In this document: positions 55,384 to 64,000 of the stretch, piece after piece
Layout: each line of letters opens with the position of its first letter
Numbering within the stretch: the stretch's first letter is position 1
Notes under the pieces: model-generated
What the model saw: the letters and a program-made list of their open reading frames with translations, nothing else
What the model was told of the DNA's origin: nothing
Databases searched by the model: none
Virus record (IMG/VR): IMGVR_UViG_3300023174_000050
Span: 126,132 to 190,131 of that record
Origin: a virus
DNA length: 64,000 nt
Reading direction: 5' to 3' (one strand)
Program-made: the position numbers and the translations under genes

Positions 55384-58302
55384 ATGGCAGATTTAAAATT
55401 ATCTGATTTAGCTGCGGCTTATAACGTTACTGATGACACGTATTTTTATACGATTCAGGGCGGAATAAGCCGCAAGTTGGGTTCCAATATCTTAGCTCAA
55501 AATTTAGTTGACCCCATATTAAAAGGTGCAATAGTACTGGACGGGGTCCAATTAATTAATGGCACAGATACTAATCAAACTATTAGCTTAACAAAGTCTA
55601 GAACAGAATTTAATATCGGGCCACGATCTGTAAATCCTACACTACCAGATGGCACCAGAGACGGATTAGTTAAAGTTATTACTCTTGCTAATGTTTCTGG
55701 TGGTGCTGTCTATATAACTACAGACAACTCAAATATCTATCCAAATACATGGGTAACATTAGGTAAAACTGGAGATACAGTTACCTTAATGTATACATCC
55801 AATACATATACCAAAGGATGGGTAATTTTAGGAACTTCTCCTGGAGTAAAAACAAATCAAACATTGGATGAGGCAAATGTTTCTTTTGATAGAATACGAA
55901 GAGCAATAAGTGCAAAAGATGAAACAATAATATATGATCAGGCTAATGGTAAGATCTCTGTAGGAAATATTGCAAATTTAATAGCTCAAGCAAATTTATT
56001 AGGGTTAACTACAGATAATTTGAGAGAAGGTAATGTAAATCTCTATTTTACTAATAATAGGGCAGTAATTGCTTTAACACCGGATTTAAATCAATTAAGA
56101 AAAAGAAATGCAAATATAATATATGTTGCAGTAAATGGTGATGATAGATTAGATGGTTTTACAATGGCAAATGCTATTGCAAACATTCATGTGGCTTTGG
56201 CAAGAGCTAACGCATACATGACAGTGCACGTATTTCCCGGAAGACACACGTTATATAATAACCCAGTAACAATACCTAGAAGAGTATCGTTAGTGGGGCA
56301 CGATTTAAGAACAACTGATGTATACGGCGCTAATCCAACTGCAGATATGTTCTATATGAACACTGGCGCTTATGTAAATGGATTTACTTTTAGGGGGCAT
56401 AGAGCAGCTAACCCAAATAATATTAAAGCAGGGCCTGCAGTATTCTCATATAATCCAGATGGTTCTGCTGGCAATATTACAACCAGCCCATATATTCAAA
56501 ATTGTTCATCAATTACAACTACAGGTACAGGCGTAAGGGTAGACGGTTCGTATGTTGGTGGATTAAAATCCATGGTGTTAGATGCATTTACTCAATTCAA
56601 TGAGGGCGGTATAGGTATACACTTATTGAATCAAGGATATATGCAATTAGTTTCATTGTTTACTATTTGCTGCAATTATTCTGTATTAGCTGAAAAAGGC
56701 GGTTTTGCTTCTATAACAAATTCCAATACATCATTTGGTACATATGGATTATATGCTGATGGCGTGAGTCCAGTATTATACAGAGGGAAAGTACTTCGAC
56801 AGTTATCAAGTAGAACTATTGAGTATGAAGGTACCAAAGTGCCCAATCTAAATGATAGATTGATAATGGCAAATTATAATAAGGCAAAATGTTTTAGAGA
56901 TACTGGACTTATTGTAGATGCATTATCATATGATTTAGCATACCAAAGTAATACTCAATCAAGATTTTCTGGTCTACAGTATTGGGCACAGGGTATAAGT
57001 CAAGTATCAGATCAAACGACAGAAGTATTAAATGCTGTTACATATTTTAAGAATTTAGCTACTAATGTAGTTGTAAACAGTACATCATGGGATGTTGATG
57101 CAACAACTCCATATCAGTCAGCTAACGCGCAAGTTATAATTAGCGGAGCACCTGGTTCTTCTGATTCTGCAAGAGAAGTTGCCAATTTATTTACTACATA
57201 TATTGATATATTTACAAATGGTACTTTTGGTGTTACTGATAAAATTATACCAAATTTATATAAGCCTGTAATACCCGCAGGTTACTATAACGCAGCAAAC
57301 TTATTAATTGCTAATAAGAATTTTATTAGCTCAGAAGTTGCAACATATTTTGCAAATAATTATCCATATGCAACATATATTCCTGGTAAAACTATATTCT
57401 CAGATGTTGGTAAACTTATAGATTCTATTTCTTTTGATATATTAAATAGTAATAGTACAGTTACATCTAATAAACAGACTCTAACTCGTGCAATATTAAA
57501 TTATAATTATAGTACAGATTTAAGTACAATTCAAAATCAAAGACCTCAGACTGCAGGTGCGTTCTCATTTATTAAAACATTTGTAGATGAAGTATTGTTT
57601 AAACAGGCAATTGCAAATACTTATCAAACTGCATATGTGCAAAATACAACTATAGCAGGCAATGTAACCGCATCCGAAATAAGTTATGTGCGTGCAAGAA
57701 TTGATGATATTGTAGATATTATTAATAATGGTCCTACATGGCAAAATGTACAGTATAATATTTTACCAATATCACTCACTGCCAATACTAATCCAAATAT
57801 AGTAGCAGCAACAAATATATTGATAGCAAATAGAGATTTTATTAGAGCAGAAGTACTTGCTTATGTTGATCAAAATTGGACAGATATTAGTAATGGTACA
57901 AGAAACTTCTACACCGTTAATGAAACAACAAATCTAGTGTCTAATATTTGCATAGTTACATTCGATGAAAAAATTCTAGCAGTAGATAGACCGCTTGCAA
58001 ATAGTGTAGTTTCTTTCCATCAAGGAAGTTATATTCAAACAAGTACACATACATTTGAATATGTTGGCTCAGGTGATACATTGACCACAGCATTGCCATA
58101 CAATGGCGGAAAACCTATTCAAGATAATGAAGTTGTATCTATAAATGGCGGAGCAGTTTATTATACCAGTACAGATCACAAGGGTGATTTTAGAATTGGC
58201 GATGAACTCTTAATTAGTAGAGCGACAGGTACCATTAATGGAAGAACATTCAATAAGAGTTTATTTGCAGTAATGACGCCATATATACTCGCATTACAAT
58301 AA
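55384..58302 (+). CDS. large tail/baseplate-associated protein with beta-helix region
   Basis: IYVAVNGDD...VHVFPG...VSLVGHDLRTT; SPYIQNCSS; C-terminal GDFRIG. Confidence 0.6.
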   Translation: MADLKLSDLAAAYNVTDDTYFYTIQGGISRKLGSNILAQNLVDPILKGAIVLDGVQLINGTDTNQTISLTKSRTEFNIGPRSVNPTLPDGTRDGLVKVITLANVSGGAVYITTDNSNIYPNTWVTLGKTGDTVTLMYTSNTYTKGWVILGTSPGVKTNQTLDEANVSFDRIRRAISAKDETIIYDQANGKISVGNIANLIAQANLLGLTTDNLREGNVNLYFTNNRAVIALTPDLNQLRKRNANIIYVAVNGDDRLDGFTMANAIANIHVALARANAYMTVHVFPGRHTLYNNPVTIPRRVSLVGHDLRTTDVYGANPTADMFYMNTGAYVNGFTFRGHRAANPNNIKAGPAVFSYNPDGSAGNITTSPYIQNCSSITTTGTGVRVDGSYVGGLKSMVLDAFTQFNEGGIGIHLLNQGYMQLVSLFTICCNYSVLAEKGGFASITNSNTSFGTYGLYADGVSPVLYRGKVLRQLSSRTIEYEGTKVPNLNDRLIMANYNKAKCFRDTGLIVDALSYDLAYQSNTQSRFSGLQYWAQGISQVSDQTTEVLNAVTYFKNLATNVVVNSTSWDVDATTPYQSANAQVIISGAPGSSDSAREVANLFTTYIDIFTNGTFGVTDKIIPNLYKPVIPAGYYNAANLLIANKNFISSEVATYFANNYPYATYIPGKTIFSDVGKLIDSISFDILNSNSTVTSNKQTLTRAILNYNYSTDLSTIQNQRPQTAGAFSFIKTFVDEVLFKQAIANTYQTAYVQNTTIAGNVTASEISYVRARIDDIVDIINNGPTWQNVQYNILPISLTANTNPNIVAATNILIANRDFIRAEVLAYVDQNWTDISNGTRNFYTVNETTNLVSNICIVTFDEKILAVDRPLANSVVSFHQGSYIQTSTHTFEYVGSGDTLTTALPYNGGKPIQDNEVVSINGGAVYYTSTDHKGDFRIGDELLISRATGTINGRTFNKSLFAVMTPYILALQ

Positions 58303-58311
58303 AGGATAAAA

Positions 58312-58674
58312 ATGGCAACACTAGTTCCCTTAAATACATTTAAAACAATTACGTCTAATTTATATACAAATGATACTATTTTGTATACTACGCCGGGTGA
58401 AACTGCAACTATTATATTGACTGCTCAAGTTAGTAACATTAGCGATAGGATTGCGAATGTTACCGTAATACATAGATCAAATGTTTTATCTGGAGGATTT
58501 AGAGTTATAACAGATACAGAATTGGTAAATAAGTTTGAAATAAATAAAAATGATGCAGCATCGGTTGTTGTAGGTAAAATTGTTTTAGAAGAAGACCAAG
58601 CTATTATTGCAAGGGCGGGTGCAAATGCGCACTTAAAGATACTCTTAAGTTTATTAGAAACATCGTTACAATAA
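58312..58674 (+). CDS. small virion-associated protein
   Basis: [27 protein letters not shown]. Confidence 0.6.
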
Positions 58675-58675
58675 A

Positions 58676-60436
<1,761 letters not shown>

Positions 60437-60437
60437 T

Positions 60438-60908
60438 ATGTTGACCTTGCAAGAATTTGATTATATTATTCATGATAATATTGTATATGATTTACAATTA
60501 TTAAATTATATTGATTCCGAAGGGAAAGATCATGTTGTTAAAGATTTAGGAACTCTTCATTCTTTAGTTGCATCTCAAAATTGTTCAATAAAATTAGAAG
60601 GTCTAGATTATTATAATAAAGAATTATATGATTGTTGTTTATCATTTAATCATACTGGTCCGGTGACCTGCCATGCCTTTCGGGCATTCAAAAATTCAAA
60701 AAGTTTTCCAGCACACGAAGATCCATATGACGTAGTACTACGAGTTATGTATGGCACAAAACATATTATTATGAATGAACAAGAGATTGTTCTTAAAGAA
60801 GGTGACCAGCTATTCATACCAAAAAACACTATGCACGAGGCAATTAATAAAGAAGAATCTTTAATTTTAAGTTTTGGTTTGGAAAAATTTTTAATAGACA
60901 AAATGTAA
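60438..60908 (+). CDS. JmjC/cupin 2OG-Fe(II) oxygenase (ROX/Cupin_4-like)
   Basis: FPAHEDPYDV (HxD) and LFIPKNTMHEA (distal His). Confidence 0.75.
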   Translation: MLTLQEFDYIIHDNIVYDLQLLNYIDSEGKDHVVKDLGTLHSLVASQNCSIKLEGLDYYNKELYDCCLSFNHTGPVTCHAFRAFKNSKSFPAHEDPYDVVLRVMYGTKHIIMNEQEIVLKEGDQLFIPKNTMHEAINKEESLILSFGLEKFLIDKM

Positions 60909-60923
60909 AATTTATATTATAAT
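60895..60923 (+). promoter_or_regulatory. sigma70-like promoter, probably giving a leaderless mRNA
   Basis: TAGACA-17nt-TATAAT ending 6 nt before ATG 60930; no SD. Confidence 0.5.
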
Positions 60924-60929
60924 GTATGA

Positions 60930-61997
60930 ATGAATAATATTTTAGTTTATCTTAAAACAACAGAAACTTGTAATTTAAATTGCAAACACTGTTTTACCAA
61001 TGGTACAAATGGTGCAAAAATATATTGGGATACCAATTTGGTTATAGATTGGATAACCAGATTATATAGACATACGCCAAATTTAGATAGTATACATTTT
61101 GAATTTCATGGCGGAGAACCTTTTTTGGTACCTGTTTCGGAAATGCAAAAGGTATATTGTGCCTGTAATTCTTTTTGGAAAAATACTACCTGGGGAGCAA
61201 CGTCAAATCTTACGTTCAAACTACAACAGGATCAAATACAATTTATAAAAAATGAACTTGGAAATAGAATAGGTACAAGTTGGGATCCAAAGATCAGATT
61301 TGCAAACAACAAACAATCTGATCTTTGGTTAAAAAATGTAAAAACATTGTTATCTGAAGGTGTAACTGTAAAATTATTCATTAGTGTTACTCAAGATACT
61401 ATTAACATAGAACCAATACACCTATTGAGTTGGATTAAAATGTTAGGAGTTCAAGAAGTATCCTTTGAGCGCTTGACGCATAATGGTAGTGCAAATCTAC
61501 ATCCAGAAATATTTCCTACAAACAAAGAACAGGATGCTTGGTTTTTAAGAATGCATGAACAAAGTGAATTATATGGTGCTAGAAACTGGTTTGATAATGA
61601 ATTTTTGGAAACAATCTATTCTAAATTTGAGTCCGGTTTTAATAGAGGAGGCACTTTTTGCAGGGATTGTGAGGAAAAATTATTTACCATTAATGCAGAT
61701 GGTAGTATATCCGGATGCCCTAATAGTGCACCCGAGGAGCATTTTGGTAAAATTACGGATAGTATAGAAAATCTATTATATAATCCAACAAGGATTAATA
61801 ACATTGCATGTGAAAGAAACATGGATGTGCGATGTTATTCCTGCGAAGTTTTTGAGTATTGTGGCGGAGATTGTCACCAATTATCATGGCAAGATGACGT
61901 ATGCGGTGCACCAAAAAGCCTAATGAAATCTCTGGCAGGTATAAATATTATATCAAATAAGATTATTAATATAAGGAAAGAAAAATGGCCGCACTAA
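60930..61997 (+). CDS. radical SAM protein with SPASM-type C-terminal domain
   Basis: CNLNCKHC (CxxxCxxC), FHGGEP, CRDC...GCPN, CYSCEVFEYCGGDC...C. Confidence 0.92.
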   Translation: MNNILVYLKTTETCNLNCKHCFTNGTNGAKIYWDTNLVIDWITRLYRHTPNLDSIHFEFHGGEPFLVPVSEMQKVYCACNSFWKNTTWGATSNLTFKLQQDQIQFIKNELGNRIGTSWDPKIRFANNKQSDLWLKNVKTLLSEGVTVKLFISVTQDTINIEPIHLLSWIKMLGVQEVSFERLTHNGSANLHPEIFPTNKEQDAWFLRMHEQSELYGARNWFDNEFLETIYSKFESGFNRGGTFCRDCEEKLFTINADGSISGCPNSAPEEHFGKITDSIENLLYNPTRINNIACERNMDVRCYSCEVFEYCGGDCHQLSWQDDVCGAPKSLMKSLAGINIISNKIINIRKEKWPH

Positions 61998-62605
61998 GTG
62001 ATCCGGTTAACGCCAACAATGTAATAAGCAGATTCTTCGACTACGTTAGAGCAACGGCTCAATCAGGTGTGACCTGGGGCTCGAATTATTTACCTACGTA
62101 CCAACCAGGATACGGGTATGCAGACGTTCAAGTTATACAAGCTGCCAGTATGGGCGGTCCCAATTATGGTGATCCTGGAATAAACACATTTATTAATAAT
62201 GCGTATCCGGGACAGGTAATTAATGCATACAATATTTACAATTACCTCAATTATTTTACATATGAATATTGCTACATAAGAAGTGTTAGGGCCGTTTTAA
62301 CTGTTACTGGTGACGGCGGTGATCAAGGCACACTACCTACTCCGGGCAACGTATACGATGCTACTGCAGTAGCGTATTTAAACTTTCGTAATACTCAGGC
62401 CGGATATGTCTCCGATTATGCAGCACCGGCGCAAGGAACAGTTGCTGCAGGGGAAAAAATAACTGCATTTTCAATGGAGGATTTTTTATCAAGATGTAGA
62501 ACGGCGTATAATAATTTTGCAAGAAATCAGACTTATCTGTGGAACCCGATAATTTGTCATGCATCTTGCCATACATCATGTCATGCATCTAGAGGAAGAA
62601 GATAA
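61985..62605 (+). CDS. 206 aa protein with C-terminal (C-H-x-S)x3-RGRR; candidate radical SAM substrate
   Basis: Ends ICHASCHTSCHASRGRR; overlaps the rSAM stop. Confidence 0.75.
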   Translation: MAALSDPVNANNVISRFFDYVRATAQSGVTWGSNYLPTYQPGYGYADVQVIQAASMGGPNYGDPGINTFINNAYPGQVINAYNIYNYLNYFTYEYCYIRSVRAVLTVTGDGGDQGTLPTPGNVYDATAVAYLNFRNTQAGYVSDYAAPAQGTVAAGEKITAFSMEDFLSRCRTAYNNFARNQTYLWNPIICHASCHTSCHASRGRR

Positions 62606-63312
62606 TGAATTTACCAAATAATGTGATTAAAACTATTGCACCCATTGCAATTGAGGATTTAAAAAAATATTTTTTAGATAAATCTATAACATATAATATA
62701 GATTATACTAATAGTAAAATTAAAGGTACAAAACTTTTAACGTATATTTCCAATTTGGATATACCATGCGATATTACCTTTAATGATAAAAATGAACAAG
62801 AAGAACTTTTAAAAGAGTATCTTAATTCGTCAGTTCTTTGTACTATTCGAAGTTTAGAAATTCTAACAATAAATTTATTGTTGGAATATAAAGAAATAAT
62901 TACAGAAAATTCGATACCCTATAAAAATTTTATAACAGATAATCTAGAAATTATAAAACAATGGGAAAGCAAATTGGATAGTTTGACACTATATAATATG
63001 TATATTGTGAATTCACCTGAGATGCAAGAATTTGCTAAAGGATTTCCTGAAGATAATAATGAAGAACTAGCAGGTATAAATTTTTTATCTTTATTAAAGC
63101 ATAATTCTTTTTATATTTACTATAGCAAGATTAAGGAATCAAATTTAAAATTTTATAAAAAATATTTCAATGAGTATATGTTTAAGGGAAAAAATTTATA
63201 TTCATATTGGGCCAACGAAAGTAACCCGTTATTTTTAATAACTTTTGGTATATCCGAAGGAATACAATTAATAGAAAATCAGGAGGTAGAACTTAATGAT
63301 ACACTTATTTGA
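62605..63312 (+). CDS. hypothetical protein
   Basis: 235 aa, TAATG coupling to the previous gene. Confidence 0.7.
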   Translation: MNLPNNVIKTIAPIAIEDLKKYFLDKSITYNIDYTNSKIKGTKLLTYISNLDIPCDITFNDKNEQEELLKEYLNSSVLCTIRSLEILTINLLLEYKEIITENSIPYKNFITDNLEIIKQWESKLDSLTLYNMYIVNSPEMQEFAKGFPEDNNEELAGINFLSLLKHNSFYIYYSKIKESNLKFYKKYFNEYMFKGKNLYSYWANESNPLFLITFGISEGIQLIENQEVELNDTLI

Positions 63313-64000
63313 CAATAAATTCTTACAATTAGATAAGTATGTTCGGCATTTTGATTATCGAGTAATTATATCAGAAGAATATGCCACGGACGATCTTAAA
63401 GATACCTCGGTAAATCCTAAAGTATTAAAATCTGGCAAAAATTTTAAAGATGCTCTGGGCGAAGATAAAGATGTCGATCATTTAATTCGATTACTTTTTA
63501 ATTTTAAATCAAAGGTAATTATACTTGCTGATATCAAAACTTATGCTAAAATATTAACTATTTGGTTAAAATCCATTACTAACATGGATAAAGAAAGATT
63601 TGACATATATGCAGATTGTTTTGCACATAAGGAATCCAAACTATATAATAATACGTCATTTTATAGAATATCTGCTATCATGAAATCTGAATGGGAAAAT
63701 TCTCCACAATTTGATTTTTCGGATTTAGATTATATGCCCTCCATAGAATTTATGTTTGCGTCTGCATTCTATGATAATAATTTTAGTAAAAAAGTAAAGT
63801 TGCAAACACAGCTTACAAAATTTATTAAAAGACAGTATGAGTTTCATATACTGGAAGCTAGGAGTTATATAGATACTTATATTTTAGATGCAGATATGCA
63901 GAAAATTCTTGGCGGAAGCGATAAGACATTATATAACTATTTAGAATTACCAAGAATGTCTGCATATAGACAGCCCTTTTTTAAAGAAGATATAGCCACT
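63296..64000 (+). CDS. hypothetical protein, 3'-truncated by the window
   Basis: AGGAGG RBS; MIHLFDNKFLQLDKY... open to the end of the window. Confidence 0.7.
   Translation, partial: MIHLFDNKFLQLDKYVRHFDYRVIISEEYATDDLKDTSVNPKVLKSGKNFKDALGEDKDVDHLIRLLFNFKSKVIILADIKTYAKILTIWLKSITNMDKERFDIYADCFAHKESKLYNNTSFYRISAIMKSEWENSPQFDFSDLDYMPSIEFMFASAFYDNNFSKKVKLQTQLTKFIKRQYEFHILEARSYIDTYILDADMQKILGGSDKTLYNYLELPRMSAYRQPFFKEDIAT

Follow-up and report, generated by a model that had tools for sequence, protein, structure and literature searches.

What does a phage gain from a protein that ends in three Cys-His repeats and whose gene overlaps that of a radical S-adenosylmethionine (SAM) enzyme? The question is raised by the end of a 64-kb window (the whole stretch of viral DNA analysed here), which is the final part (G000:C1:126132-190131) of a linear IMG/VR record of 190,131 bp. 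Among the products of the record is a major capsid protein of the T4 type (Gp23 family, 2.9e-141), and the phage is T4-like, from a lake, and uncultured. Behind a series of tail-fibre genes, the window closes with genes for a cupin, a radical SAM enzyme with a SPASM domain (rSAM1), the protein with the Cys-His tail ('tailed protein') and two further proteins, U4 and U5. This five-gene layout, with the last gene running off the window, had been described in an initial annotation and agrees with the open reading frames (ORFs).

These five genes are the 5' portion of a late-gene cassette that is conserved among large phages. We propose that the neighbouring radical SAM enzymes probably act on the tail and that their product becomes a component of the virion. 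This proposal is based on the gene content of the cassette, the near invariance of the tail, the strict co-occurrence and coupling of the genes, and the presence of one homologue in virions.

A near-invariant tail on variable bodies

The tailed protein (61985..62605, + strand, 206 aa) ends in ICHASCHTSCHASRGRR followed by a stop codon, that is, I-CHAS-CHTS-CHAS-RGRR. Its last 16 residues (CHAS...RGRR, codons 62555-62602) contain all three His of the protein, and their Cys are spaced C-x3-C-x3-C. At the DNA level, the window contains a single CH-xx-CH-xx-CH pattern, which is also the only one in the 190-kb record; 100 shuffles gave none.

A first search retrieved 23 relatives (alignment A1), among which the C, H and R positions of the tail are invariant and the N-terminus is conserved (MA-L--P-N). 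When 1.84 billion cluster representatives (50% clustering) were searched with a profile, the family grew to 546 representatives at E<=1e-3. In the 170 sequences used for statistics, CHxxCHxxCHxx is present in 164 members and a fourth repeat in none; RxRR stands exactly four residues after the repeats, at the end of the protein, in 161 (RGRR in 119), and in 99 of the 164 motif carriers every Cys lies in the tail. Averaged over all pairs of 141 representatives, identity is 80% for the tail versus 28% for the body. The initial annotation had read the repeat as C-H-x-S, with an invariant Ser. This has to be corrected: position 4 is Ser in 95, 81 and 85% of repeats 1, 2 and 3, respectively, and otherwise Asn or Ala, and the invariant features of the tail are limited to the Cys, the His and the R-x-R-R end. 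Rare variants (P0093, P0115 and P0161) have lost the middle Cys (CHSNH[AS]NTCH[TS]S) or have a third repeat changed to Gly, and keep an RSRR end.

The same tail is shared by distinct bodies of about 125 aa, about 200 aa, 296 aa (phage Atu_ph07) and 453-541 aa, the proteins of about 125 aa being encoded in pairs after a giant ORF. In some relatives (453-461 aa; P0174-P0178 and P0076), an N-terminal Gly_rich_2 domain (PF21722) is fused to a whole tailed protein. The first, 5'-cut ORF of the source contig (L005:3-602) also encodes a Gly_rich_2 protein.

An AlphaFold2 model of the window's protein (predicted local distance difference test (pLDDT) score 78.7) comprises three long helices and a beta hairpin, with a pLDDT below 50 in the tail; the tail is thus predicted to be a disordered, exposed C-terminus on a folded body. 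Comparison of the body fold to the Protein Data Bank (PDB) with Foldseek gave nothing at E<=0.001. In a wide VIA-align search, the best Z was 6.1, for a designed helical protein, and a baseplate chain of phage Milano scored at noise level (Z 3.4). The ESM Atlas returned only matches with a template modelling (TM) score below 0.4, and in BFVD only orthologues matched, Atu_ph07 gp170 among them. This absence of matches gives no fold assignment; nor does it make the fold new.

Strict association with radical SAM genes

Is the association with radical SAM genes general? We fetched IMG/VR loci using peptide patterns from the tail and body of the tailed protein alone, and classified their ORFs with phmmer and hidden Markov models. 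The order cupin, rSAM1, tailed protein was recovered in 51 of 57 loci (L012-L062), and all 51 follow, as far as each contig reaches, the arrangement cupin-rSAM1-tailed-U4-(U5)-rSAM2-...-rSAM343-...-rSAM309-U134. The other six (L063-L068) have a second architecture, in which tailed proteins (two of them in five of the six loci) precede two to six proteins with a CX3CX2C motif. There, the cupin and rSAM1 are not recognisable; an rSAM2 orthologue is found in four of the six loci, and the other CX3CX2C proteins are too divergent for family models. One of these loci (L065:254-18977) has a giant ORF of at least 3,140 aa, then two tailed proteins of 124 and 127 aa, then five or six CX3CX2C proteins.

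Among cultured phages, 15 of the 15 records with an rSAM1 homologue hold an adjacent tailed protein. These records are Atu_ph07, Phosso, the RSL2/RSF1/FLC/RsoM3USA/SURPRISE13 group and pPa_SNUABM_DT01. DT01, RSL2 and Atu_ph07 share this gene order; their tails are ICHTSCHTSCHSARGRR, VCHSSCHTSCHGSRGRR and FCHSSCHASCHNSRSRR, respectively. The initial annotation had tied the motif to neighbouring radical SAM and cupin genes, and this tie held in 51 of the 57 IMG/VR loci and in all 15 cultured records, the remaining six loci having CX3CX2C proteins beside the motif.

Carriers are T4-like aquatic phages and jumbo phages of Pseudomonas, Ralstonia, Burkholderia, Agrobacterium and Sinorhizobium. A scan of one representative prokaryotic genome for each of 185,579 species produced five loci only, mostly in metagenome-assembled genomes (MAGs). 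One of these, in the Bdellovibrionaceae MAG UBA2316 (DDVI01000089.1, L070), has two rSAM1-like genes, with genes for a FabH-like β-ketoacyl synthase (KAS) III and an AMP-binding ligase upstream. We found no phage structural genes within 10 kb of this locus, which may therefore be a cellular copy. A DNA search of phage records with the 3.5-kb cassette region gave no match.

rSAM1, a SPASM enzyme outside the named families

rSAM1 (60930..61997, + strand, 355 aa) has a CX3CX2C cluster motif at C14/C18/C21 that is invariant in 25-45 orthologues. It passes the SPASM model TIGR04085 (30.6 bits, cut-off 27), in keeping with the full Cys-rich SPASM domain that was initially annotated. The SPASM Cys (C244, C247, C263, C302, C305, C311, C315 and C325) are conserved in orthologues and arranged in the patterns CX10GX4C and CX2CX5CX3C...C; such a set of seven or eight Cys would serve two auxiliary [4Fe-4S] clusters. 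Since the Pfam Radical_SAM score of 21.3 bits lies below the cut-off of 29.5, the radical SAM assignment rests on the motif and on full-length NCBIfam alignments. The top named NCBIfam matches are PapB (1.3e-13), DynA (1.2e-11) and anSME, the anaerobic sulfatase-maturating enzymes (4.9e-11), along with further peptide maturases, and a PDB-sequence profile search returned 8vpo (an unnamed radical SAM protein), anSME (4k36-39, 5e-07) and CteB (5wgg), followed by weaker matches. As the initial annotation had expected, rSAM1 groups neither with anSME nor with nucleotide-modifying radical SAM enzymes, all named NCBIfam scores being far below their cut-offs. Its counterparts in Atu_ph07, Phosso, the RSL2 group and DT01 share 42-50% identity with it.

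Because the cluster motif starts at residue 14, there is no space for an N-terminal recognition element (RRE) of the kind associated with peptides made by ribosomes and modified after translation (RiPPs), and Pfam and NCBIfam scans found no RRE or PqqD family match in any cassette gene. From its sequence, rSAM1 is placed in the SPASM peptide/protein maturase group, outside every named family. With a full SPASM domain and no RRE, it resembles whole-protein maturases, and its best matches (PapB, anSME and CteB) are Cys-modifying enzymes. A prediction of rSAM1 in complex with SAM, three 4Fe-4S clusters and the C-terminal 57 residues of the tailed protein obtained a score of 0.01, which counts neither way.

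The cupin and the rest of the cassette

The first cassette gene (60438..60908, + strand) encodes a JmjC_2-like cupin of 156 aa. It passes the Pfam models JmjC_2 (PF08007; 40.9 bits, cut-off 22) and Cupin_2 (31.9 bits, cut-off 27.2). Residues H79, H93, D95, K108 and H133 are conserved in 45-50 orthologues, H93-x-D95...H133 being an HxD/E...H iron triad. However, the JmjC_2 match spans only the C-terminal part of the Pfam model, and the closest solved structures belong to small Cupin_2 barrels rather than to JmjC enzymes. The initial annotation had called this protein a JmjC-type 2-oxoglutarate (2OG)-Fe(II) oxygenase. Its passing of the JmjC_2 cut-off and its intact triad speak for that call, but 'JmjC' is too strong a label for a minimal 156-aa cupin close to Cupin_2 barrels. 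The protein is probably an Fe(II) oxygenase, and the data do not imply dependence on 2OG.

ROX-type JmjC enzymes hydroxylate protein His or Arg, and both of these target residue types are invariant in the tail. The cupin shares with the ROX-type hydroxylases (YcfD/RoxA, NO66 and MINA53) the PF08007 pass, the HxD...H triad and a Lys; it differs from them in its length of only 156 aa, its partial model match and its solved neighbours, which are Cupin_2 barrels.

U4 (62605..63312, + strand, 235 aa), a core protein of unknown function, comes after the tailed protein in practically every complete locus. It matches phrog_20767 (7e-65) and no Pfam or NCBIfam family, and a feature search of the Atlas gave only unnamed clusters below 0.9. 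Its conserved residues are exclusively aromatic or Asn, with no conserved Cys or His. U4 may be a non-catalytic helper. U5 (63296..64000, + strand) is cut by the contig end, leaving the first 235 of about 395 codons. Over all 235 residues it is 67% identical to a 395-aa protein of a relative (L009); it has no family match in Pfam or NCBIfam and is present in 30 loci.

What lies beyond the cut can be judged from close relatives in lake metagenomes, which have the same fibre genes and tailed proteins 62-67% identical to that of the window. Their cassette continues with the remainder of U5 (395 aa in total), another radical SAM enzyme, small proteins of unknown function, 2OG-Fe(II) oxygenase-like proteins, sometimes a B12-binding, KedN5-type methyltransferase radical SAM enzyme, two more radical SAM enzymes and the 134-aa protein U134. 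In all, these relatives hold three or four radical SAM enzymes beyond rSAM1 and several 2OG oxygenases. In complete copies, the core consists of the window's five genes plus the SPASM-type paralogues rSAM2 and rSAM343, the twitch-like rSAM309 and U134. Optional accessories are one to four 2OG-Fe(II) oxygenases and a radical SAM methyltransferase-like enzyme that depends on B12. Minimal cassettes without extra oxygenase are found in L014, L016, L019 and L044. rSAM1, rSAM2 and rSAM343 each keep seven or eight auxiliary-cluster (SPASM-like) Cys, and rSAM309 keeps a shorter set. The three SPASM enzymes equal the three tail repeats in number.

A homologue in purified virions

Is the tailed protein a part of the particle, as was initially suggested? 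In Atu_ph07, gp170 was detected in purified virions as a protein of 31.89 kDa, with 8 unique peptides and 35% coverage (PMC6102473 Table S5). The tailed homologue of this phage (L003:6059-6949) is gp170: its translated mass matches exactly, and the neighbouring gene numbers match by mass. gp170 occurs in gel slices 1-9 and peaks in slice 1, a part of the gel dominated by proteins of about 75-139 kDa; among other small proteins of this phage, only gp321 and gp616 behave similarly (PMC6102473). The concentration of a 32-kDa protein in slice 1 points to an SDS-stable larger species. The products of neighbouring genes, gp171 (radical SAM), gp172 (cupin) and gp169 (U4), are absent from the virion list (PMC6102473). 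Virion association thus appears supported for one homologue, Atu_ph07 gp170.

Comparison with known maturation systems

Does the cassette belong to a system already described? Full-text literature searches turned up no account of either the tail or the pathway. Papers on carrier phages list the genes merely as cupin, Fe-S oxidoreductase or radical SAM proteins without an assigned role (PMC8066314, PMC11898562), and a comparative survey of jumbo phages makes no mention of the cassette genes (PMC7824862). On the other hand, 'radical SAM cassettes' have been noted in the host-recognition regions of pelagimyophages and other large phages (PMC7029224), and a T4-like marine genome was found to have 12 radical SAM genes, such genomes also encoding Fe-S assembly proteins (PMC5332604).

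The bacterial HXS system, in which HxsB, HxsC and HxsD mature the repeat protein HxsA, with +8 Da on SHRSS, one repeat (Li et al., Nat Commun 2026, PMC13128918), had been put forward as an analogy in the initial annotation. Part of it stands. As in the cassette, a full-size protein carries short, basic-rich, His-containing repeats and is accompanied by more than one radical SAM enzyme and a small helper; both systems have been placed at the interface between phage and cell envelope. However, HXS is bacterial (99.7% Pseudomonadota) and defensive, whereas the cassette is phage-borne, and in the cassette the Cys is invariant, the Ser is replaceable, the repeats are exactly three and C-terminal, and the enzymes are a cupin and four core radical SAM proteins. 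The replacement of Ser by Asn or Ala makes the analogy weaker than first stated. Nor do the Hxs family models recognise the cassette. rSAM1 reaches 25.3 bits against HxsB (TIGR03978, cut-off 370) and the rSAM343 of a relative reaches 25.8 bits against HxsC (TIGR03977, cut-off 267.9), so neither is a member. At E<=0.1, neither the tailed protein nor U4 or U5 matched any NCBIfam model, HxsA (TIGR03979) and HxsD (TIGR03976) included, and U5, U134, U191 and U237 of the relative L009 gave no match at E<=0.001.

The best precedent for the chemistry proposed here is CrpC, a SPASM enzyme of Methanococcus voltae that installs ranthionine thioethers on the Cys-rich protein CrpA (PMC13692751). Like rSAM1, it is a SPASM enzyme with three [4Fe-4S] clusters, and its protein-sized substrate is encoded next to it. 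The comparison is by description only, and there are differences: CrpC has a predicted RRE and rSAM1 has none, and the substrate motif, the organism (an archaeon) and the setting are not the same.

The C-x3-C-x3-C spacing of the tail appears to resemble the repeated Cys cores of ranthipeptides and sactipeptides. PapB (NF047865) is the best-scoring named family for rSAM1, aligned over residues 8-317 with 50.9 bits against a cut-off of 340, and CteB/SCIFF (5wgg) aligns over nearly the entire profile. In contrast to the PapB and CteB systems, the cassette has no leader peptide and no RRE, and its candidate substrate is a folded, virion-type protein of about 200 aa. The acceptor residues Asp (PapA) and Thr (CteA) are also absent in the cassette; there is no Asp in the tail and no Cys-x3-Asp core. 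More generally, a canonical RiPP has a short precursor, a leader and an RRE, whereas the candidate here is a folded protein of about 200 aa. With anSME (TIGR03942; 4K36-4K39), rSAM1 shares a minimal radical SAM plus SPASM architecture, the lack of an RRE and a (candidate) whole-protein Cys/Ser substrate. It differs in score (42.3 bits against a cut-off of 349.45) and in its setting in a multi-enzyme cassette. The sulfatase motif C/S-x-P/A-x-R is fitted by the window's last C-H-A-S-R by chance; across family members, G, S, N, T, A or F occupies the third position. Judged by family models and motifs, the cassette belongs to none of the HXS, anSME and PapB families.

Genomic context and expression

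The cassette adjoins fibre genes in the relatives examined. In the window it is preceded by three fibre-type genes: a tail-fibre gene (55384-58302, 972 aa, PHROG tail fibre match), a second fibre-type gene (58312-58674) and a collagen-like tail-fibre gene (58676..60436, + strand, 586 aa), the last of which is not counted in the cassette. The collagen-like fibre matches Pfam Collagen (6e-29) and many PHROG tail-fibre families. It ends in an autoproteolytic domain of the intramolecular-chaperone (IMC) type; the match to Peptidase_G2 IMC (2.2e-05, 24.4 bits) is slightly below the 25-bit cut-off. In 44 of 56 loci, the cupin gene is immediately preceded by one for a homologue of this fibre. The 2OG-FeII_Oxy_3/5 proteins of the cassette might target this collagen-like, IMC-type fibre instead of the tail.

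In the ORF listing, the successive gaps between the collagen-like fibre, cupin, rSAM1, tailed protein, U4 and U5 genes are 1, 21, -13, -1 and -17 nt, and the fibre genes and cassette look like a single late operon. A match to the T4 late-promoter consensus, TATAAATA (61940..61947, + strand), lies in the 3' end of rSAM1, 37 nt 5' of the ATG of the tailed protein, and is followed by a strong ribosome-binding site, AAGGAAAG, directly 5' of the tailed gene. The TATAAATA motif is found at most 70 nt 5' of the start of the tailed protein in 13 of 70 loci, at varying distances. Its role as a late promoter is suggestive only, because the motif shows no enrichment across the whole window. Scans for sigma-70 promoters and terminators gave chance-level results only.

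Since the window ends at the 3' end of the contig, this copy of the cassette is cut short after its first five genes, with rSAM1 as the one SPASM enzyme in the whole visible genome. We sought a continuation at the contig start and found none; the first ORFs there have no counterpart in the fetched relatives. CheckV rates the record as 100% complete, yet both of its ends truncate ORFs and the cassette breaks off. By comparison with relatives, at least some 8-10 kb is absent from the record.

Possible functions of the tail

How might the cassette work? The tailed protein would be produced late, alongside the fibre genes. The radical SAM enzymes would then act on its disordered 16-residue tail, (Cys-His-x-Ser/Asn/Ala)x3-Arg-x-Arg-Arg, abstracting H atoms near the tail and drawing the three Cys into covalent links. 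Thioether bridges to neighbouring residues, of the sactionine or ranthionine type, are our best guess. It is based on the nearest enzyme relatives and on the tolerance of Ser, Asn or Ala at position 4, a tolerance that fits C-H abstraction better than a chemistry requiring a hydroxyl. The cupin may hydroxylate His or Arg of the tail, and the matured protein would finally be incorporated into the virion near the fibre/baseplate apparatus. What this scheme says of tail modification, its chemistry, the location in the particle and the role is what we infer from the observations above. More tentatively, we may be looking at a RiPP-like pathway with multiple radical SAM enzymes acting on the phage's own virion protein, in which the tail would become a non-proteinogenic cross-linker to the fibre or baseplate, or a metal or redox group at the cell surface during adsorption or penetration. 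The cross-linker version agrees with the position of the 32-kDa Atu_ph07 homologue at the top of the gel.

Several points weigh against tail modification and virion incorporation. The modification is proposed from gene evidence, not from mass-shift data. No covariation was seen between the tail and the accessory enzymes, identical tails occurring with zero to four oxygenases and with or without the B12 enzyme, and these enzymes may therefore act elsewhere. Since rSAM2 is the only enzyme recognisable in L063-L068, rSAM1 may not be the tail-specific enzyme. The gel loading buffer used for Atu_ph07, as described, contained no reductant (PMC6102473), and the high-mass form of gp170 could thus be disulfide-linked or an SDS-resistant oligomer. 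Genome annotations of RSL2, FLC6 and S13 do not include the tailed protein among virion proteins, an absence that can also be called neutral; the initial claim of virion association is accordingly backed by gp170 and lacks support from the RSL2 group. Lastly, three Cys and three His are a classic set of metal ligands, and an unmodified metal site explains the conservation of the tail equally well.

Could the tail then simply bind a metal? On this account, it would be an unmodified site for Zn, Fe, Ni or Cu, perhaps between subunits, on a fibre-associated virion protein, and the enzymes would act elsewhere, for example on the collagen-like fibre. Apart from Arg, only Cys and His side chains are invariant in the tail, and His residues bind metal ions in fibre and needle proteins of phages (T4 gp37, gp12 and gp5, for instance). 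The collagen-like fibre before the cassette in 44 of 56 loci, the several accessories of the 2OG-FeII_Oxy_3/5 type and the independence of the tail from accessory enzymes would all fit. However, the rSAM1 and tailed genes overlap and are always found together, even with another fibre or none (Bdellovibrionaceae locus); the exact three repeats, the terminal RxRR and the C-x3-C-x3-C spacing resemble radical SAM core peptides; and a metal site would not need the four Fe-S enzymes of the minimal cassettes. Considering both sides, we regard a bare metal site as unlikely. A conversion of tail Cys (or Ser) to formylglycine, whose aldehydes would then tie the protein to another virion protein, appears more doubtful, with no more than a slim chance of being right. 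It has in its favour the anSME matches over the whole length of rSAM1 (TIGR03942, 4.9e-11) and to 4k36-39 (5e-07), the common architecture (radical SAM plus SPASM, about 360 aa, no RRE, whole-protein substrate) and the peak of the 32-kDa gp170 at the gel top, as expected for a covalent species. Yet the score is 42 bits against 349, the C/S-x-P/A-x-R motif is not conserved (G, S, N, T, A or F stands two residues after the last Cys), four paralogous enzymes exceed the need of one reaction, and the gel was apparently run without reductant.

The tail could be the precursor of a small cofactor or peptide, similar to pyrroloquinoline quinone (PQQ) or mycofactocin, built on the C-terminus of a carrier protein and then released, the product and not the protein being what counts. 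The tailoring machinery is large for a stretch of 16 residues, with four to nine radical SAM enzymes, oxygenases and a B12 methyltransferase-like enzyme, and would suit such a product; C-terminal cores are typical for MftA-type and PqqA-type systems, and a possibly cellular copy lies near fatty-acid-type genes (Bdellovibrionaceae MAG). But no protease or exporter was found in the conserved core, the body is folded with a conserved N-terminus, one homologue is a virion protein, and in the relatives examined the cassette lies within the fibre/host-recognition region (PMC7029224), all of which make a released product very improbable. It is harder still to credit that the tailed protein serves the phage radical SAM enzymes as an Fe-S carrier or electron donor rather than as their substrate. 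The cassette does need many [4Fe-4S] clusters and a reductant, and radical-SAM-rich T4-like environmental genomes do encode Fe-S assembly proteins (PMC5332604). Against this, the tail is disordered and extreme C-terminal, with no ferredoxin, Nfu or A-type carrier signature, virions contain the tailed protein but not the enzymes, and fusion to a glycine-rich, structural-type domain occurs. A DNA-modification pathway was also considered and rejected, as it accounts neither for the invariant protein tail nor for the translational coupling to rSAM1.

If the tail is indeed matured by the neighbouring radical SAM enzymes, the cassette would represent a widespread, uncharacterised maturation step of phage particles and the first enzymatically installed radical SAM modification of a virus particle. 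It would extend radical SAM peptide chemistry from small secreted natural products to structural virus proteins and provide a new substrate motif for SPASM enzymes. As several carriers are cultured, the question is open to direct mass spectrometry and phage genetics. The answer might help explain the presence of 'radical SAM cassettes' in the host-recognition regions of pelagimyophages and other large phages (PMC7029224).

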